Assembly: GCA_003354025.1 (NCBI GenBank)
Contig: PIVU01000001.1
Location: 2,435 to 66,434, forward strand
Length of the DNA stretch: 64,000 nt
Reading direction: 5' to 3'
DNA from: Nitrospirota bacterium
GTDB lineage: Bacteria > Nitrospirota > Thermodesulfovibrionia > UBA6902
This document shows, in pieces, positions 44,195-63,585 of this stretch. Each line of letters starts with the position of its first letter. Position 1 is the stretch's first letter. The position numbers and the translations under genes were made by a program. The notes beneath the pieces were generated by a model, which was not told where the DNA came from, did no database searches, and saw nothing but the letters and a program-made list of their open reading frames with translations.

Positions 44195-45019
44195 TTACAC
44201 CTTCTGATACATGATTACTTTATTTGTAACACTCGGTCTGAATGCCCTTGTAACATTGTGAAGGCTCTCCGATGAACCGATAAACAGGTAGCCTCCTGGA
44301 TTTAAACAGTCATATAGATTAGACACGACTTTCTGCTTGGCCTTTGCATCGAAATAAATGAGAACGTTACGGCAAAAGATTACGTCCATTCCGCGCAATG
44401 ATTTAATTTTATTGTTATCTATAAGATTGATCTTGTTGAATTTAACAGTGTTCTTTACTGATGCATTTAACGAATAAGACTGTTTTTCAGGTGAGAAGTA
44501 TTTTCTTAGATAATTCTCGGGCATGTTCCTGATGGAGTATGAATTGTATATTGCTTTTTTAGCAGAGGACAGTACTCCTTCACTCAGGTCGGATGCATGT
44601 ATTTCGAACTTGTTGGCTGTAATGTTCTTTTCAGTTAGCATGATTGATAAAGTGTAGGGCTCTTCGCCTGTAGAGCATGCTGATGACCAGAGCTTTAGTT
44701 TTTGACCTGCCTTCTTTGTTGACATGATTTTTGGTATTACCAGGTCCGCGAAAACATCAAGCTGCTGGGGCTCTCTGAAAAAATATGTTTCATTTGTAGT
44801 TACCGCATCAAAGAGTCTCGTCAGTTCTGTGCCGTTTGAACTGAACTTTATTAACTTAAGGTATTCTTCAAAACTCTTTAACTGCTTTTCCTGAAGTATG
44901 CGGGAAAGGCGGTTTTCTATGAGGTACTTCTTTGTATCGGCAATATAAATGCCGCTTTGATCATATATATAGTCCCTCAGGTCTTTAAAAGTGGAGTCAA
45001 CAAGGGGGATGCTCAGCAT
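44195..45019 (-). CDS. cheR: Chemotaxis protein methyltransferase CheR.
   Basis: YFFREPQQLDVF...LWSSACSTGEEPYTLSIML, the SAM-dependent MTase motifs of CheR. Confidence 0.9.
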   Translation of the reverse strand: MLSIPLVDSTFKDLRDYIYDQSGIYIADTKKYLIENRLSRILQEKQLKSFEEYLKLIKFSSNGTELTRLFDAVTTNETYFFREPQQLDVFADLVIPKIMSTKKAGQKLKLWSSACSTGEEPYTLSIMLTEKNITANKFEIHASDLSEGVLSSAKKAIYNSYSIRNMPENYLRKYFSPEKQSYSLNASVKNTVKFNKINLIDNNKIKSLRGMDVIFCRNVLIYFDAKAKQKVVSNLYDCLNPGGYLFIGSSESLHNVTRAFRPSVTNKVIMYQKV

Positions 45020-46437
45020 GTTACCTCCGAATTGAAACCAGATGTATATCGTGAAGCGGATTGCTGTATGTTTTCATTGAATTCACTTGCTCTGGAAAAG
45101 AATAATGTTGAATTTATATTCATAAGCGAATTTATAAACTCATCAATCACATCATTGTACTGCTCTTTGTGCAGCATTTTCATAAGAGGTTCAAATGCAT
45201 CTGCTTCGCTGATTTTGCCAAGGGCTATCACAGCATTTTTACGGACATGGCTGTCCTCGTCGGAAATTGCATCTATCAGACACTCCTTTGCTTCACTGCT
45301 GTCTATTTCTCCCAGGGATTTAATTGATGACCTTCGAATGTCCCTGTATTCGCTGTTAAGAAGCAATATGAGGTCGGCGACGGCATCTTTGCACTGTAAG
45401 TTCCCGATGATTTCCGTTGCAATGACTTTCCCCCTGTATTTAAGAGAATCATTATTGAGAAGTTCTATCAGTGACTGATTACAGCCGAAGCTTTGAATTG
45501 CTTCCTTAATAACATACAGCCTGTCTTCATTATCAGGCTCGGACATGTCAAGAGATCCTGCCAGGTCAAGCAGGTCACGAATTGCAGTAGTTTCATTAAG
45601 GAGCACAAGGCCCTTTATTGCTATTAACCTGTCGTCCCAGTCATCTTCGGACAGCATTTTAATCAATATTTCTGAAATGCTTTTTTCAGACGGGATTGTG
45701 CCAATCTGTACCAGACTTTTAATGATTGATATTGTTTCGAATTCATTGGCTTCAGGCATGTGGTCGACTAAGGGCTGTGCTGCTTTTGGTGAGCAAATGT
45801 TGCCTAATGCTTCAATAGCGGCAAAGCGGGTTGTTTCAGAGGTGCTATTGAGAAGCTGAACAATAGTATCTACAGCGCTTTCATCTTTCAACTCAGTTAG
45901 CGACTCCAGTGCTGAAAAGCACACCCATTCTTCATCTTCGAGCGCTTTAATAAGCTGGGGGACAGCCTTTTTATAATGAAGTCTTCCCAGGGTCTTAGAG
46001 GCGGCGGCGCGTACGTTGGCGTTTGAATCACCTGTTAGCATTTCTACGAGCTTTTCTGGATATGTGCAGTACTCAATATCATGTATGAGGTCCAGTGCGA
46101 ATTTTCTAACATCATCATCTCTGTCGTTAAGAAGAACATAGAGAAGCGGGATTGTGGTCCTGCCCATTTCCTTCAGAATGATTAAGGCGGTATTGCGAAG
46201 AAAGGAGTTTTCCCGTAAAAGCGGCAGCACCATATATGCCGTACACTCTCCCTTGATTTCCATAAGAGAACGCATTGCCGCATCCTGTACACCGTAGTTA
46301 TCATCTCTCAAGGCTTTAATGAGAGGGTACACCGCACGTTCGTCACCTTCTGCAAGACCTTCAGCGGCAGCACGTCTGACTGAAGCATCTTCATCTTTGA
46401 TGTTTCTCAGGAATTTGTTTAGTTTTGCAGTGTGCAT
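45013..46437 (-). CDS. HEAT / PBS-lyase repeat protein encoded at the head of the che operon.
   Basis: Repeated units of the form VRRAAAEGLAEGDERAVYPLIKALRDDNYGVQDAAMRSL. Overlaps the cheR start. Confidence 0.7.
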   Translation of the reverse strand: MHTAKLNKFLRNIKDEDASVRRAAAEGLAEGDERAVYPLIKALRDDNYGVQDAAMRSLMEIKGECTAYMVLPLLRENSFLRNTALIILKEMGRTTIPLLYVLLNDRDDDVRKFALDLIHDIEYCTYPEKLVEMLTGDSNANVRAAASKTLGRLHYKKAVPQLIKALEDEEWVCFSALESLTELKDESAVDTIVQLLNSTSETTRFAAIEALGNICSPKAAQPLVDHMPEANEFETISIIKSLVQIGTIPSEKSISEILIKMLSEDDWDDRLIAIKGLVLLNETTAIRDLLDLAGSLDMSEPDNEDRLYVIKEAIQSFGCNQSLIELLNNDSLKYRGKVIATEIIGNLQCKDAVADLILLLNSEYRDIRRSSIKSLGEIDSSEAKECLIDAISDEDSHVRKNAVIALGKISEADAFEPLMKMLHKEQYNDVIDEFINSLMNINSTLFFSRASEFNENIQQSASRYTSGFNSEVTC

Positions 46438-46513: not shown

Positions 46514-46541
46514 TTATCGGTATATTAAGTTCATTTCTTTA
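46514..46541 (-). promoter_or_regulatory. Candidate sigma-28 promoter of the che operon.
   Basis: Minus strand reads cTAAAG-N15-ACCGATAA, about 75 nt upstream of the HEAT gene start. Confidence 0.5.
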
Positions 46542-46592: not shown

Positions 46593-47018
46593 TTAAACAA
46601 TCTTCTGCTCCAGTACTGATTGAGATTTTACATCGTCGGCCTCAGTCTTCACCATGTTTCTGCCCGAGCGCTTTGCAAGGTATAATGCGCGGTCTGCCCG
46701 CTCGAAAACGGTGGTGCAGTCATCTCTTTTTTTAAACGCGCTAACACCGACACTGATTGTCAGCGGGATTTGAGTACCCTGATATGAAAAATTGGCATTG
46801 TCAATATAAGAGCGTATCCCTTCTCCAGCCTTCAGTGCACCTTCCAGTTCCCTGTTGCGGGTTGAGAGAGAATCAATATATTTTTTAATAACTTCCAGCG
46901 GAGAGTCCAGCCACTCCTGCGACAGTTCTTTAAGTATTGACAGTACCTCATCAGCAACTGCATATACTTTCTCCTCAAATTCCCCCTGAGTATCAGATAA
47001 ATTAATCTCTTCAGGCAT
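46593..47018 (-). pseudogene. Internally deleted paralogue of the downstream GGDEF gene. It keeps only the N-terminal helix and the C-terminal third of the GGDEF domain and has no GGEEF motif.
   Basis: EEKVYAVADEVLSILKELSQ and AGEGIRSYIDNANFSYQGTQIPLTISVGVSAF...ADRALYLAKRSGRNMVKTE align with the N- and C-terminal ends of the 451-aa neighbour. The coiled coil and catalytic core are missing. The ORF is nonetheless intact. Confidence 0.5.
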
Positions 47019-47157
47019 ATAATGCTCCTCCCGGTACCATTGCAGAATCGTAACTATATATATTTGTATATGTATACTGTGGTCATATAATTCCGTGTAT
47101 ATCTATTATCGGGATAAGGGAGGAATTCTTTAGGTATTTTTACTAGGTAAGTGAAGA

Positions 47158-48513
47158 TTATGAAGTAAGAGATTTCTGAGTGATGTCATCATCTTCTTTT
47201 ATCACATCTTTTTCTGTTTTTACGGTGTTTCTTCCTGAATTTTTTGCCAGATAAAGTGCATTGTCCGCTCTTTCCATGACCGATTCAACTGTGTCGTCTT
47301 TTCTGAATACACTTATACCCACACTAATTTTGAGGGGGATATTTCGGTTTTTATAAGAAAACATTGCATTGTCTATATATGATCTGGCGCCGTCGCCTGC
47401 TTTTTCTGCATCCTTTAAAGATGTATGTGGAAGAATAATGGCGAACTCCTCTCCTCCGTATCTCGATATAAAATCATTTACCCTCAGTTTCTCTTTCAGG
47501 AGTGAAGCCAGTTTCTTAAGGGCAAGGTCTCCAACTTTATGTCCGAATGAATCATTGATTTTCTTAAAGAAATCAATATCGCAAAACATCAGTGATGCAG
47601 GCACATCATATCTCCGGAGATTAGCGAGAGTTTCTACTACTTTCTGATCGTATGCTTTCCTGTTATATAAACCTGTCAGCTGATCACGCAGCGATTGCAG
47701 TTCAATTTCCTCGGCCTTCTTTTTGATCTCCTTGGCCTCTTTTTTTATACCCGATATTCTTGAGCTCATCTGTTCAAGAGTTGTTTCCTGTTCCTTTAAA
47801 TGGATCATGTCCTGCTCTCTTTTTTGGTCTATGCCCTTATTAATATTCTCGATTTTGCCAAAGACCGCACTTTTGAGCTTTTTCAGATTGTCCGTTATCA
47901 TTCCTGGAGAAGAGTCAAAATCTTCTTTTATCATAGACATATTGATAGAAATGCTCTTTTCAAACTCTCTGTCCTGGTTAAATTTATTTTGATGAAAGGA
48001 TAGTTCAGTTGATACATGCTCCTCTGTTTCTTCCAGGTAGCTGATTGTCTGGCGCATAAATTCTTCCAGCTCCTTATTCTTCAGATAAAGGGCATCAAAG
48101 TATATCTTTATATACTTAAGGAGTGAATCCAGTCTGCTGGCCGTATTCTCGAATAAATTCTTGTCATGAATCTGCTTCTTAAGATCACTGATTTCTTCAG
48201 TTAACATATCAGGCGCCATGTCTGAAAACTTATCAAGGAAGTTAGATGTCATGTCCTTTAAGCGGCTTATTTCACTATGTGTCTCCTGCTTAATGTCGGG
48301 GTGGTCTGCATGAATAGGCGGAAGGGGCTCTATAAGCATTTTCTGGACAGTGCCTTTTACTACCAGTTGTTCTGCTATTGCTTTGGCATTCAGTTTTTTC
48401 TTGTTGTCTTTAGAGAGCTGTTTAAGAATATCGAGAACTTCATCTGCGATTACATATATTTTTTCCTGTAACTCTGAGGAGTTATCTTCTGGTTGTCCCG
48501 TGTCCTGTTCCAT
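47158..48513 (-). CDS. Diguanylate cyclase: a long N-terminal coiled coil followed by a GGDEF domain.
   Basis: LTGLYNRKAYD...RYGGEEFAIILP, plus the I-site RVND. Confidence 0.8.
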   Translation of the reverse strand: MEQDTGQPEDNSSELQEKIYVIADEVLDILKQLSKDNKKKLNAKAIAEQLVVKGTVQKMLIEPLPPIHADHPDIKQETHSEISRLKDMTSNFLDKFSDMAPDMLTEEISDLKKQIHDKNLFENTASRLDSLLKYIKIYFDALYLKNKELEEFMRQTISYLEETEEHVSTELSFHQNKFNQDREFEKSISINMSMIKEDFDSSPGMITDNLKKLKSAVFGKIENINKGIDQKREQDMIHLKEQETTLEQMSSRISGIKKEAKEIKKKAEEIELQSLRDQLTGLYNRKAYDQKVVETLANLRRYDVPASLMFCDIDFFKKINDSFGHKVGDLALKKLASLLKEKLRVNDFISRYGGEEFAIILPHTSLKDAEKAGDGARSYIDNAMFSYKNRNIPLKISVGISVFRKDDTVESVMERADNALYLAKNSGRNTVKTEKDVIKEDDDITQKSLTS

Positions 48514-48594: not shown

Positions 48595-48622
48595 TTATCG
48601 GTAAATGTGTCCATTTCTTTAG
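48595..48622 (-). promoter_or_regulatory. Possible sigma-28-like promoter for the GGDEF gene, with a spacer one base shorter than the others.
   Basis: Minus strand reads cTAAAG-N14-ACCGATAA. The -35 context, CTAAAGAAATG, is the same as at the che promoter. Confidence 0.3.
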
Positions 48623-55943: not shown

Positions 55944-57003
55944 AAAGATACAGGCTAAAAACTTCAGGCAGGCCCTTTCTCTTGTAAAAAAGGAACTGGG
56001 ACCGGATGCCGTCATTCTTTCCTCTGAAGACAAGAAGGAGAATGGTTCCTATGTTGAAGTGACCGCTGCGATTGATGATGCTGTTGAGACAAATGTCCAG
56101 GAGCAATATGCTGTTGCTTCAGCACCAGTAACTGTTTCCGGAGACACGCGGACCAGCGGTAATGAGATGGTGGAATTAAAACAGGAGATGCAGTATTTGA
56201 GGGAGTGCATGGAGTCAATGCGCAGCAGCTGTTTTGAACCCAAGCTTCCGGAAGAGAGAAAAAATATGTTTCATTTTCTCCGTGAGAGATCAATTAAAGA
56301 TGACTTAGCTCTCAAACTCATTGAAAGGGCTGCCGACTCCGATGAACTGAGGTCTGTAATACATAATGACTTAAGTTCTATTACCGGTCAGGGCAATACT
56401 TCAGATAAGAACGACAGGAGGGCTGTAATGCTGATAGGCCCCACAGGGTCAGGGAAAACTACTACTGTGGCGAAGCTTGCATCCCAGGCAATAAGGGAAG
56501 GAAAGAAAGTTGGTCTCATAAGTATGGACACATACAAGGTGGGCGCAGCGGAGCAGATAAGAATTTATGCCCGTATGATCGGCCTTCCGCTTTCAGTTGT
56601 ATCAAATATTGAGAGCCTTCAGAAAAGTATAAAAGGGTATTCGGACAGAGATGTTATTTTCATTGATACTGCCGGACATAACCCCAGTGACAGTGAGTAT
56701 ATCGGAAGACTGAAACAGATTTATGAAACGGGGTATCCCATGGAGACCCAGTTATTACTAAGTACATCAAGCGACAATGATTTCTTAATGGAATCCCATA
56801 AACACTATAACGCTTTGCCCATAGATTATGTTGCCTTTACAAAGACGGACGAAGCGGTAAAGCTGGGGTCCATATATAACCTCTGCCGTCTCTATCAAAA
56901 ACCGGTGGCATATATCACAAACGGGCAGAGGGTACCGGGGAACATTGAATTCGTTGACAGCAATAGATTGACAAATCTTATTTTAAGAACAGGGAGCGCA
57001 TAA
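55933..57003 (+). CDS. flhF: Flagellar SRP-type GTPase FlhF.
   Basis: VMLIGPTGSGKTTTVAKLA, DTAGH and TKTD, the GTPase motifs. Confidence 0.85.
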   Translation: MRIKKIQAKNFRQALSLVKKELGPDAVILSSEDKKENGSYVEVTAAIDDAVETNVQEQYAVASAPVTVSGDTRTSGNEMVELKQEMQYLRECMESMRSSCFEPKLPEERKNMFHFLRERSIKDDLALKLIERAADSDELRSVIHNDLSSITGQGNTSDKNDRRAVMLIGPTGSGKTTTVAKLASQAIREGKKVGLISMDTYKVGAAEQIRIYARMIGLPLSVVSNIESLQKSIKGYSDRDVIFIDTAGHNPSDSEYIGRLKQIYETGYPMETQLLLSTSSDNDFLMESHKHYNALPIDYVAFTKTDEAVKLGSIYNLCRLYQKPVAYITNGQRVPGNIEFVDSNRLTNLILRTGSA

Positions 57004-57824
57004 TGAACACTGCGGGTGGAAAGACGGTCAGGACTATAGCTATAGCAAGCGGGAAGGGGGGTGTTGGTAAGACAAACATTACTGCAAGTTTGGCGATTGC
57101 ATTACAAAAGCTCAATAAGAAGGTAATGATATTTGACGCTGATCTTGGAATGAGTAACATTGATGTCATACTTAATCTTGCAACTAAATATAACATTGAG
57201 CATCTGTTTAAAGGGGAAAAGAAATTGAAGGACCTGATTGTTGAAGGGCCTCATGGAGTAAAAGTGCTTCCGGCAAGTTCGGGAATCCAGGAACTGACTG
57301 CACTGGATGAGTTTCAGAGGCTTAGGCTTATTGAGGAATTTGAGACTTATGATGAAAATCTTGATTATCTTTTGATTGATACATCATCGGGGATAACTTC
57401 AAATGTAGCTTTTTTCTGTATGGCTGCGCAGGAGATACTGGTTGTGACATCAGCAGAGCCCACTGCACTGACCGATGCCTATGCACTAATGAAAGTGCTC
57501 TTCACAAAGTATCAGGAAAAGAATTTTAAGGTTCTTGTTAACAATGTAAAGGACAATAAAGAGGCGGTGGAAGTTTATAACAGACTGTCAACTGTTACTG
57601 AGAGGTTCCTGAATATTTCAATTGATTATATAGGATATGTACCGCACGATGATTCAGTGACGAAGTCGGTCAGGCAGCAAAGAGCTTTTATGGACAGATA
57701 CCCTAACAGCGAAGCATCCAGAAAACTATCGGAGATTACGGAGAGAATCAATGACGATGATAGTCACGAGGTCAAAGGATCGCTTCAATTTTTTCTTGGA
57801 GGACTACTAAATTCAAAATGCTAA
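57003..57824 (+). CDS. flhG: MinD/ParA-family flagellar number regulator FlhG (FleN).
   Basis: Deviant Walker A, SGKGGVGKT. Confidence 0.85.
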   Translation: MNTAGGKTVRTIAIASGKGGVGKTNITASLAIALQKLNKKVMIFDADLGMSNIDVILNLATKYNIEHLFKGEKKLKDLIVEGPHGVKVLPASSGIQELTALDEFQRLRLIEEFETYDENLDYLLIDTSSGITSNVAFFCMAAQEILVVTSAEPTALTDAYALMKVLFTKYQEKNFKVLVNNVKDNKEAVEVYNRLSTVTERFLNISIDYIGYVPHDDSVTKSVRQQRAFMDRYPNSEASRKLSEITERINDDDSHEVKGSLQFFLGGLLNSKC

Positions 57825-58549
57825 AATTCAAAAATACAATCACGGAAGAACAAAAAGAAGAGATCATTAAAGAGTTTCTGCCCTATATCAAGTACACTGC
57901 GTACAGGCTTTCATGGAAGCTCCCACAGCACATAACCATTGACGATCTGATTAGTGTAGGGTTGATGGGGCTCATGGATGCGTTGAGCAGGTTTGAACCG
58001 GGGAAAGTAAAACTAAAGACATATGCAGAATTAAGAATCAAGGGATCTATGATTGATGAACTGCGGGCAACGGCATGGATACCAAGGTCAATGAGGAAAA
58101 AGATTGAATCCATCAACAAAGCCCGGGCCGTTCTTGAGAGAAAAAACGGCAGTGCTCCTGATGATGTTGAAGTGGCCAAGTCAATGGACATGCCACTGAA
58201 TGAGTATTTTAAGATTCTTCAGTACGCTACGTCATCAAGTCCTATCAGGCTTGAGGATTTCCGAAACAGCAAGTATTCAGACAGTGACTTGAATATCACT
58301 GAGTGTATTGCAGACCCCAAGGCAAAGAGCCCGCTGAATGTTCTCGAAGAAAAGGACACGAAGGAAAAACTGAGTGAACTAATTGAGACCCTGCCTGAAA
58401 AGGAAAGACTTGTGCTGGCCCTTTATTACTACGAAGAAATGACTATGCAGGAAATAGGTAAGGTCCTGCGTATAACAGAGTCGCGTGTCTGTCAGATACA
58501 CAGCCAGGCGCTGGGGAAATTAAAAACAAGGATTAAGAAGACAGTATAG
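57818..58549 (+). CDS. fliA: Flagellar sigma factor sigma-28, FliA.
   Basis: Sigma-70 regions 2, 3 and 4 (YAELRIKGSMIDELR, LYYYEEMTMQEIGKVLRITESRVCQIHSQAL). Confidence 0.9.
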   Translation: MLKFKNTITEEQKEEIIKEFLPYIKYTAYRLSWKLPQHITIDDLISVGLMGLMDALSRFEPGKVKLKTYAELRIKGSMIDELRATAWIPRSMRKKIESINKARAVLERKNGSAPDDVEVAKSMDMPLNEYFKILQYATSSSPIRLEDFRNSKYSDSDLNITECIADPKAKSPLNVLEEKDTKEKLSELIETLPEKERLVLALYYYEEMTMQEIGKVLRITESRVCQIHSQALGKLKTRIKKTV

Positions 58550-63172: not shown

Positions 63173-63561
63173 TGAATCTTTTGACAGGAATAAACGGTCA
63201 ACTGCCTGTTAAGGCAAAACAGTCGGCAGACAAGGCCCAGTTAACTGTTAAAAAGCAGCAATCAGCGGAAGAGAGCATGAACAGCGATGATATAAGACAG
63301 GCAGCTAAAGAGATGGAGTCCCTGTTTGCTTTTCAGATGCTGAAAGTGATGAGAGAAACCTCGGACAGTATGTCGGGCGAAAAGAAGGGAAACGGTTATA
63401 ATACTTACATGAGCATGTTTGACACGGAAATTTCTAAAGTGCTGGCTGAAAGAGGCATGGGACTTCAGGATTCTATTGTAAGGTGGCTTGAAAGACCAGG
63501 TGTAAATGATGTTGACAGCAAGGAAAATACAGAAATTAGCATAACTAATAGTAATGATTAA
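63169..63561 (+). CDS. flgJ: FlgJ-like rod-binding protein: rod-binding domain only, with no muramidase domain.
   Basis: AAKEMESLFAFQMLKVMRET...MFDTEISKVLAE, the Rod_binding motif. 130 aa. Confidence 0.65.
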   Translation: MMNLLTGINGQLPVKAKQSADKAQLTVKKQQSAEESMNSDDIRQAAKEMESLFAFQMLKVMRETSDSMSGEKKGNGYNTYMSMFDTEISKVLAERGMGLQDSIVRWLERPGVNDVDSKENTEISITNSND

Positions 63562-63585
63562 AGTAATTGAAATAAATGCCGATAG
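63559..63585 (+). promoter_or_regulatory. Sigma-28 promoter of flgM.
   Basis: TAAAG-N15-GCCGATAG, about 50 nt upstream of the flgM ATG. Confidence 0.55.

Follow-up and report, generated by a model that had tools for sequence, protein, structure and literature searches.

Canonical GGDEF proteins such as PleD, WspR, DgcZ, and DosC are diguanylate cyclases (DGCs), and in solved DGCs the helix directly preceding the GGDEF domain is the dimerizing stalk. Degenerate GGDEF proteins such as PopA and PelD act as receptors for cyclic di-GMP (c-di-GMP). Outside this family, SinI/SinR of Bacillus subtilis and the plant and animal microProteins LITTLE ZIPPER and Id exemplify antagonists derived from the interaction module of a neighboring paralog. 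Here, we describe a 141-residue open reading frame (referred to as the short ORF) that lies beside an intact 451-residue cyclase gene (DGC1) on contig PIVU01000001.1 of a Nitrospirota bacterium (Thermodesulfovibrionia; GCA_003354025.1). The stretch analyzed, positions 2,435 to 66,434 of the contig (64,000 nucleotides [nt]), is called the window. The short ORF is the ortholog of an old paralog of DGC1, here named DGC2, from which two in-frame deletions have removed all catalytic and allosteric motifs, while the promoter motif, the ribosome-binding site, and the reading frame are retained. It is probably, though by no means certainly, a recently inactivated relic of DGC2 that is still expressed and has no selected function.

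DGC1 and intact DGC2 share with the canonical cyclases the full domain, the GGEEF motif, and the RxxD site (I-site) at a PleD-like spacing. The short protein resembles these enzymes in its last ~70 residues, which superpose on their C-terminal part; unlike them, it lacks strands β1 to β3, the metal-binding Asp, the guanine-binding residues, GGEEF, and the I-site. Like PopA and PelD, it is a noncatalytic GGDEF derivative kept beside active signaling genes, but PopA and PelD keep the complete domain fold and the RxxD binding site, which lies five residues upstream of the GGDEF motif, and the short protein has neither. An identity as a c-di-GMP receptor was ruled out because the I-site is lost. 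With SinI, LITTLE ZIPPER, and Id, the short ORF shares the arrangement of a small protein beside a larger paralog, with shared helices kept and the working domain gone. Conservation across species and binding are both established for those antagonists, whereas the short ORF is a singleton known from sequence and carries a domain fragment that should not fold. Of what a SinI-like module would comprise, it keeps two conserved N-terminal helices and has lost the stalk helix next to GGDEF. The literature on truncated or dominant-negative GGDEF proteins and on "DGCcoil" yielded nothing relevant.

The short ORF is the ortholog of an old second cyclase gene

A first-pass annotation of this DNA had described tandem GGDEF paralogs, one of them internally deleted, and had aligned the 141-residue ORF with both ends of its 451-residue neighbor. 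BLASTP and Pfam searches bore out both observations, with a similarity well in excess of chance. Residues 58 to 139 of the short protein matched residues 366 to 447 of DGC1 (61% identity; E value, 4e-30), and residues 9 to 35 matched residues 10 to 36 (56% identity; E value, 1e-7). A third block, overlooked at first, joined residues 37 to 63 to residues 128 to 154 (48% identity; E value, 1e-4), and the three blocks are collinear in the two proteins. The similarity is clear between the proteins; the DNA is barely alignable, with ~69% identity over a single 86-nt stretch. Because of this low DNA identity, the similarity must stem from an old duplication and not from a recent copy. DGC1 itself has a complete GGDEF domain (residues 275 to 429; profile positions 2 to 160; E value, 8e-46), a weak DGCcoil match in its N-terminal helical region (E value, 0.0013), and the motifs CDIDFFK, RVND (I-site), and GGEEF. 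The domain is PleD-like by sequence, and its RxxD site is spaced as in PleD. Orthologs of DGC1 are 67 to 74% identical to it over the full length, and a shorter one with a 25-residue deletion is 84% identical.

In related metagenome-assembled genomes (MAGs) of Thermodesulfovibrionia, the flagellar operon fliL-fliM-fliN-fliO-fliPQR-flhBA is transcribed opposite to a run of genes that starts next to fliL and reads DGC1, DGC2, HEAT, cheR, cheY, cheY, and cheA. DGC1 comprises 447 to 451 residues in these relatives, DGC2 comprises 436 to 443, and the HEAT-repeat protein comprises 474. The full arrangement was seen in two loci (L002 and L003), and part of it in three others (L004, L040, and L039). 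The gene order of the window is the same, and the 141-residue ORF occupies the exact DGC2 slot, 139 nt downstream of DGC1 on the same strand and 155 nt before the HEAT gene. In a neighbor-joining (NJ) tree of all copies, the short protein groups within the DGC2 clade, beside the DGC2 proteins of L004, L040, and L002, and the long protein of the window falls in the DGC1 clade. By both position and phylogeny, the short ORF therefore belongs to DGC2 and is not a recent copy of its neighbor. Of the earlier proposal of a decaying duplicate, decay fits the comparative picture, but duplication of the neighbor does not, since DGC2 forms a separate, old clade. The short ORF and the full-length DGC2 genes of L002 and L003 (P0057 and P0119) are alike in slot, neighbors, start region, promoter-motif position, and C terminus, with 61 to 84% identity over the retained blocks. 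Unlike them, the window copy lacks 83 + 212 codons, that is, the entire catalytic and allosteric core.

Protein searches placed the DGC family in MAGs of Nitrospirota/Thermodesulfovibrionia, several contigs of which carry two members. A scan of genome contigs found no loci with DGC1 alone and 33 with an alignment, the window's own genome not being among them. The closest relative is L005, whose DGC1 is 91% identical over residues 172 to 451 and 85% identical over residues 1 to 160; 26 codons into DGC2, it turns into a chimeric high-GC end and is uninformative about the deletions. Abrupt switches inside DGC2 to unrelated sequence of higher GC content were seen in L001 (positions 789 to 1570, followed by an apparent tRNA-derived ORF) and in L005 (positions 1760 to 1899). 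Both are probably chimeric assemblies, and the two potentially most informative relatives were lost in this way. Further afield, MAGs of Gammaproteobacteria/Thiohalophilus (L016 to L023) encode homologs of ~30% identity that align with DGC1 from about residue 101 to residue 429, so the architecture of coil plus GGDEF extends beyond Nitrospirota.

Two in-frame deletions removed the catalytic and allosteric core

The deletions were read from an alignment of the short ORF to DGC2 of L002, L003, L004, L040, and L001 and to a 192-residue N-terminal fragment (P0008). Where a single internal deletion had been proposed, the alignment resolves two, both in frame (Table 1), and the lengths balance (436 − 83 − 212 = 141). 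In line with the first-pass annotation, the GGEEF motif is missing, as are the RxxD site and ~295 residues in all, and the ORF has its own start and an intact frame, which runs undisrupted from ATG to the natural stop. It had credited the short ORF with the N-terminal helix and the C-terminal third of the GGDEF domain; a second helix segment (WLDSPLEVIKKYIDSLSTRNRELE) is also retained, and the GGDEF part amounts to ~44% of the domain.

Table 1. Coordinates of the cyclase genes, retained blocks, deletions, and expression signals (window positions unless a locus is named).
Feature	Position	Strand	Description	Basis
DGC1	47158..48513	minus	Intact 451-aa diguanylate cyclase	ORF list, Pfam, AlphaFold2 (AF2) model
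Short ORF	46593..47018	minus	141 aa plus stop; positional ortholog of DGC2 after two in-frame deletions	ORF, alignment, tree
Block 1	46914..47018	minus	Codons 1-35; start and conserved N-terminal helix (EEKVYAVADEVLSILKELSQE), with positions nearly invariant throughout the family	Corresponds to helix 12-36 of DGC1 model
Block 2	46842..46913	minus	Codons 36-59 (WLDSPLEVIKKYIDSLSTRNRELE); first 24 residues of long helix	Alignment
Block 3	46593..46841	minus	Codons 60-141 plus stop; GGDEF α3 to end, including FERADxALYLAKxSGRN	Alignment, Pfam
Deletion 1	Between 46914 and 46913	minus	83 codons (80 relative to L004); left …LKELSQE, right WLDSP…	Alignment
Deletion 2	Between 46842 and 46841	minus	212 codons; left …RNRELE, right GA.KAGEGIRSYID…	Alignment
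Sigma-28 (FliA)-type promoter motif, short ORF	47106..47132	minus	TAAAG-N15-CCCGATAA	Pattern search
Sigma-28-type promoter motif, DGC1	48596..48621	minus		Pattern search
Sigma-28-type promoter motif, HEAT-cheR operon	46514..46541	minus	Spacer one base longer	Pattern search
Sigma-28-type promoter motif, FlgM-like ORF	63559-63584	plus	Near window end	Pattern search
Shine-Dalgarno sequence, short ORF	47025..47032	minus	GGGAGGAG, 6 nt before ATG	Read from sequence
Full-length DGC2, P0057	L002 7454-8764		GCA_003358065.1
Full-length DGC2, P0119	L003 7660-8991		GCA_947259645.1
P0155	L041 5001-5489; L042 1292-1780; L043 635-1123		162-aa remnant without GGDEF core	Exhaustive scan

At the first junction, each breakpoint is immediately preceded in relatives by a GA(N) codon, GAG or GAA at the left edge and GAC or GAA at the right (CAG in L001). 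At the second, the left edge in relatives reads CTG GAA GAT and the right edge CTT GAC GGC, against CTG GAA GGT in the window. These codons bear the signature of deletion between short similar sequences, the similarities being at most about 7 nt. The contig is metagenome assembled, and related contigs are visibly flawed (chimeric ends in L001 and L005, a run of N in L004, and frameshifts in the low-coverage L039 and L040), as would suit deletions that are assembler errors or a minority variant of the population. We consider such an artifact very unlikely: assemblers use k-mers much longer than the junction similarities, each junction is clean and keeps the frame, and the flanking sequence is collinear with that of the relatives.

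An AF2 model of DGC1 (mean predicted local distance difference test [pLDDT] score of 75) contains helices at residues 12 to 36, 124 to 200, and 208 to 275, the last leading into the GGDEF domain, in which α3 spans residues 366 to 382. Projected onto this model, deletion 1 takes out the four helices that separate helix 12-36 from helix 124-200, up to where the latter begins. Missing through deletion 2 are the remainder of helix 124-200, helix 208-275, and the GGDEF elements up to β3; this deletion ends just before α3. According to the alignment, the DxD metal site (DxDxFK, in β1), the guanine-binding residues, the RxxD site (RVND or RIND in DGC1 and intact DGC2), and the GGEEF motif all went with deletion 2. 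The short ORF accordingly carries no GG[DE]EF motif or metal-binding Asp. It matches only positions 90 to 160 of the 161-position Pfam GGDEF profile (E value, 3e-8) and positions 94 to 166 of 168 in TIGR00254, so that it falls short of a complete domain of ~160 residues (PF00990/TIGR00254). The coiled-coil family PF20975 has no match in it, and 24 residues of the first long helix remain. An AF2 model of the short protein (pLDDT, 71.5) consists of three helices plus the fragment, and Foldseek matched it only to the last ~70 residues of solved GGDEF domains. The short protein thus cannot act as a cyclase and has no recognizable c-di-GMP site.

This anatomy bears on a second explanation, under which the short ORF is a selected mini-protein that acts through its two retained, family-conserved N-terminal helices and is coexpressed with the late flagellar (FliA) regulon. 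By taking up the docking site or N-terminal bundle that serves DGC1 (and formerly served DGC2), it could titrate a partner or form mixed assemblies with a single catalytic domain, and its effect would be to lower local c-di-GMP synthesis while flagella are built. The locus would then show a microProtein caught at birth, a redundant cyclase paralog turned into a FliA-regulated 141-residue competitor of DGC1 made of docking helices and a C-terminal stub. We regard this as possible but doubtful. The retained N-terminal helix is the most conserved noncatalytic part of both paralogs, and on the DGC1 model the deletions are neatly placed, the first taking exactly four helices and the second ending exactly at α3. 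The helix that precedes GGDEF (residues 208 to 275 in the DGC1 model) is gone, however; with the stalk deleted, the N-terminal helices would be the sole contact left for any heteromer, including one with the poison subunit suggested in the first-pass annotation. A GGDEF fragment without β1 to β3 is unlikely to form the palm fold by itself, and AF2 reproduces only the fragment. Sensing of c-di-GMP is not expected, as the I-site is lost.

The short form is a singleton in a slot of variable content

The short protein forms a singleton cluster. No other protein of this architecture was found in a word-indexed search of 5.8 billion clusters or in an exhaustive phmmer scan of 1.84 billion cluster representatives, and degenerate patterns spanning either junction had no match in JGI metagenomes. 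Across the genomes and metagenomes searched, the short form thus has no conserved counterpart, which counts against a selected mini-protein, although the lineage is poorly sampled.

The slot between fliL and the HEAT gene varies in content. Among the loci retrieved, it holds two DGCs in six (L002, L003, L004, L011, L012, and L013), one DGC in three (L008, L009, and L015), one DGC plus a remnant in the window, and only a remnant in L041 to L043. Several lineages are evidently losing DGC copies here. P0155, the remnant of L041 to L043 (a sister lineage within Nitrospirota, seen in several samples), belongs to the same DGC family as the short ORF, lies in the same slot, also lacks the GGDEF core, and also has a sigma-28-type promoter motif upstream. 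Nothing else, and in particular no intact DGC, remains between fliL and the HEAT gene. It retains coil residues ~188 to 303, the last ~36 to 55 residues of GGDEF, and the natural C terminus, with breakpoints that differ from those of the window. Despite DGC2-like residue signatures, it groups in the NJ tree with L014/L015, outside the DGC1 and DGC2 clades. The ORF begins 31 nt downstream of the sole well-placed Shine-Dalgarno-ATG combination in the spacer (GGAGGG, 7 nt, ATG; L042 position 1261) and is read in another frame. The DNA upstream is too diverged among the distant loci for an alignment to tell whether this ATG is the ancestral start. L041, L042, and L043 are 99.8 to 100% identical to each other and hence carry no population signal for P0155. 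Its sequence gives P0155 the look of a dead gene, and a dead-looking remnant with other breakpoints indicates that deletional decay does happen at this locus.

Expression signals are retained

The classical consensus of sigma-28 (FliA) promoters is TAAAG-N15/16-CCGATAA. The pattern has four matches in the window versus 0.33 expected. The motif (Table 1) starts 108, 114, and 104 nt upstream of DGC1, the short-ORF ATG, and the HEAT gene, respectively. In L005, L004, L001, and L003, DGC2 is preceded by the motif at an equivalent position. Purine- or G-rich stretches occupy the position of the short ORF's Shine-Dalgarno sequence in L004 and L005. A sigma-70-family factor of the size and position of FliA is encoded at positions 57818 to 58549, after FlhF- and FlhG-like genes; these three names follow from domain hits and gene order. 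A generic promoter and terminator scan of the window was uninformative, with fewer sigma-70-like matches than in shuffled sequences. Judged by their sigma-28-type motifs, both DGC genes appear to be part of the late flagellar regulon, and the remnant is predicted to be still transcribed with the late flagellar genes and is probably translated. The intact frame, start codon, Shine-Dalgarno sequence, and sigma-28-type motif are what a selected mini-protein would require; a young relic would also keep the promoter motif and the Shine-Dalgarno sequence. The sigma-28-type motif also recurs before homologous genes in many related loci.

The frame might instead be kept for the sake of the neighbors, with the product itself irrelevant: only in-frame deletions would be tolerated, since early termination of translation would break its coupling to transcription and cut read-through into HEAT-cheR-cheY-cheA. 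DGC1, cheA, and every gene between them share a strand and are closely spaced, and a search for terminator-like sites along the minus strand of this interval found none. The HEAT-cheR operon, however, has its own sigma-28-type motif within the 155-nt spacer, in the window and in relatives, and need not depend on read-through; the L042 lineage, moreover, tolerates an out-of-frame 5′ junction at the same place. Such an effect is, in our judgment, improbable.

Selection or recency

Rates of nonsynonymous and synonymous substitution (dN and dS) among orthologs proved of limited use, as dS between the window and its relatives was saturated, with finite estimates only for the pairs with L004 and L001. 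For the short ORF versus L004, dN was 0.11 and dS was 1.2 to 1.8 (omega, 0.06 to 0.09). Relative-rate and branch-specific counts were used instead, the codon changes being counted where two reference orthologs agree.

Several observations weigh against a relic. The short ORF has no mismatches at the 38 columns that are conserved in at least 90% of 119 full-length members and 2 at the 57 columns conserved in at least 80%, for which the mean of intact members is 3.97. Tajima-type relative-rate counts are balanced (7 versus 8, 7 versus 5, 2 versus 5, 6 versus 4, 2 versus 4, 5 versus 6, and 3 versus 5). Window-specific codon changes are 17 synonymous to 3 nonsynonymous, in line with intact genes (17:2 in L040 and 19:6 in L002). 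Three of the four deletion endpoints coincide with predicted helix boundaries, which is tidy for random decay. The short ORF contains no frameshift or stop codon, and its start, Shine-Dalgarno sequence, and promoter motif are undamaged. What would mark it as a pseudogene is the loss of the parts needed for the ancestral function (core, I-site, and stalk), and the decay that had been proposed for it is not demonstrated by lesions or accelerated change within the retained sequence.

With no relaxation of constraint detected, a neutral relic would have to be very young. These counts would miss neutral evolution spanning up to ~10% of the terminal branch, and we estimate that any neutral period lasted at most about a tenth of that branch, or ~0.03 to 0.05 substitutions per site. 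The retained codons show no detectable relaxation, which would suit a selected mini-protein; all of this conservation is equally explained by recency, and the data cannot separate recent deletions from a constrained remnant. Preservation of the frame speaks only weakly for the mini-protein. In eight intact family genes, 46 to 51% of direct repeats of 5 to 8 nt spaced 60 to 900 nt apart are separated by a multiple of three. With repeat spacing in frame ~50% of the time, two in-frame microhomology deletions are expected by chance in about one case in four (~0.25). An argument that staying in frame twice has a chance of 1/9 and hence reflects selection was rejected on these grounds. In keeping with this, two near-identical DGC1 orthologs from JGI samples (P0012 and P0013, the latter at L004 positions 47 to 1255) differ by one residue and a clean in-frame deletion of 25 residues (QMGNRINGIKKEAEEIKKKAEEIEM) in the stalk helix leading into GGDEF. 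This pair represents a strain-level length polymorphism of the stalk.

We therefore lean, with reservations, toward the short ORF as a recently inactivated relic. This reading draws on the full-length syntenic DGC2 genes, the tree, the two clean junctions, the lost core, the singleton status, the variable slot, P0155, and the common occurrence of in-frame outcomes. DGC2 is the second of two old tandem DGCcoil-GGDEF cyclase genes between the fliL operon and the HEAT-cheR-cheY-cheY-cheA operon of Thermodesulfovibrionia. Deletions joining short similar sequences took 83 codons (four N-terminal helices) and, separately, 212 codons (the greater part of the long helix, the stalk helix, and β1 to β3 of GGDEF with the metal-binding, I-site, and GGEEF residues). 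The deletions were presumably recent, dating from about the final tenth of this lineage's terminal branch, and formed part of an ongoing reduction in the number of DGC genes in the slot, where DGC1 would supply the activity; the product probably has no selected function. So read, this is an ordinary kind of event, the deletional decay of a redundant paralog, in an unusually tidy state.

If the short ORF is a relic, it offers a clean, datable snapshot of bacteria trimming redundant c-di-GMP enzymes through large deletions whose ends share short similar sequences. About half of such deletions in these coiled-coil genes keep the frame and can leave behind ORFs to which automatic annotation will give the label "GGDEF domain protein." A functional short ORF would instead provide a rare case in bacteria of an antagonist that arose when a paralog was internally deleted, with a tie to the flagellar late-gene program. 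The finding is of modest importance unless maintenance of the short form becomes apparent from closer relatives or from expression data. Either way, the conserved, apparently sigma-28-controlled DGC pair between flagellar and chemotaxis operons is an uncharacterized link between motility and c-di-GMP in Thermodesulfovibrionia.

Other features of the window

An Rfam search of the whole window gave no matches and hence no c-di-GMP riboswitch. The ORF behind the sigma-28-type motif at the window end was recognized by eye and is presumably FlgM-like. A relaxed form of the sigma-28 pattern had a fourth match at positions 56700 to 56723 (minus strand), inside the flhF-like gene, probably by chance. 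The 474-residue protein downstream of the short ORF consists entirely of HEAT repeats (positions 45013 to 46437, minus strand), and its gene overlaps the start of cheR (positions 44195 to 45019, minus strand) by 7 nt. It is kept at 53 to 91% identity at the same position in every related locus.

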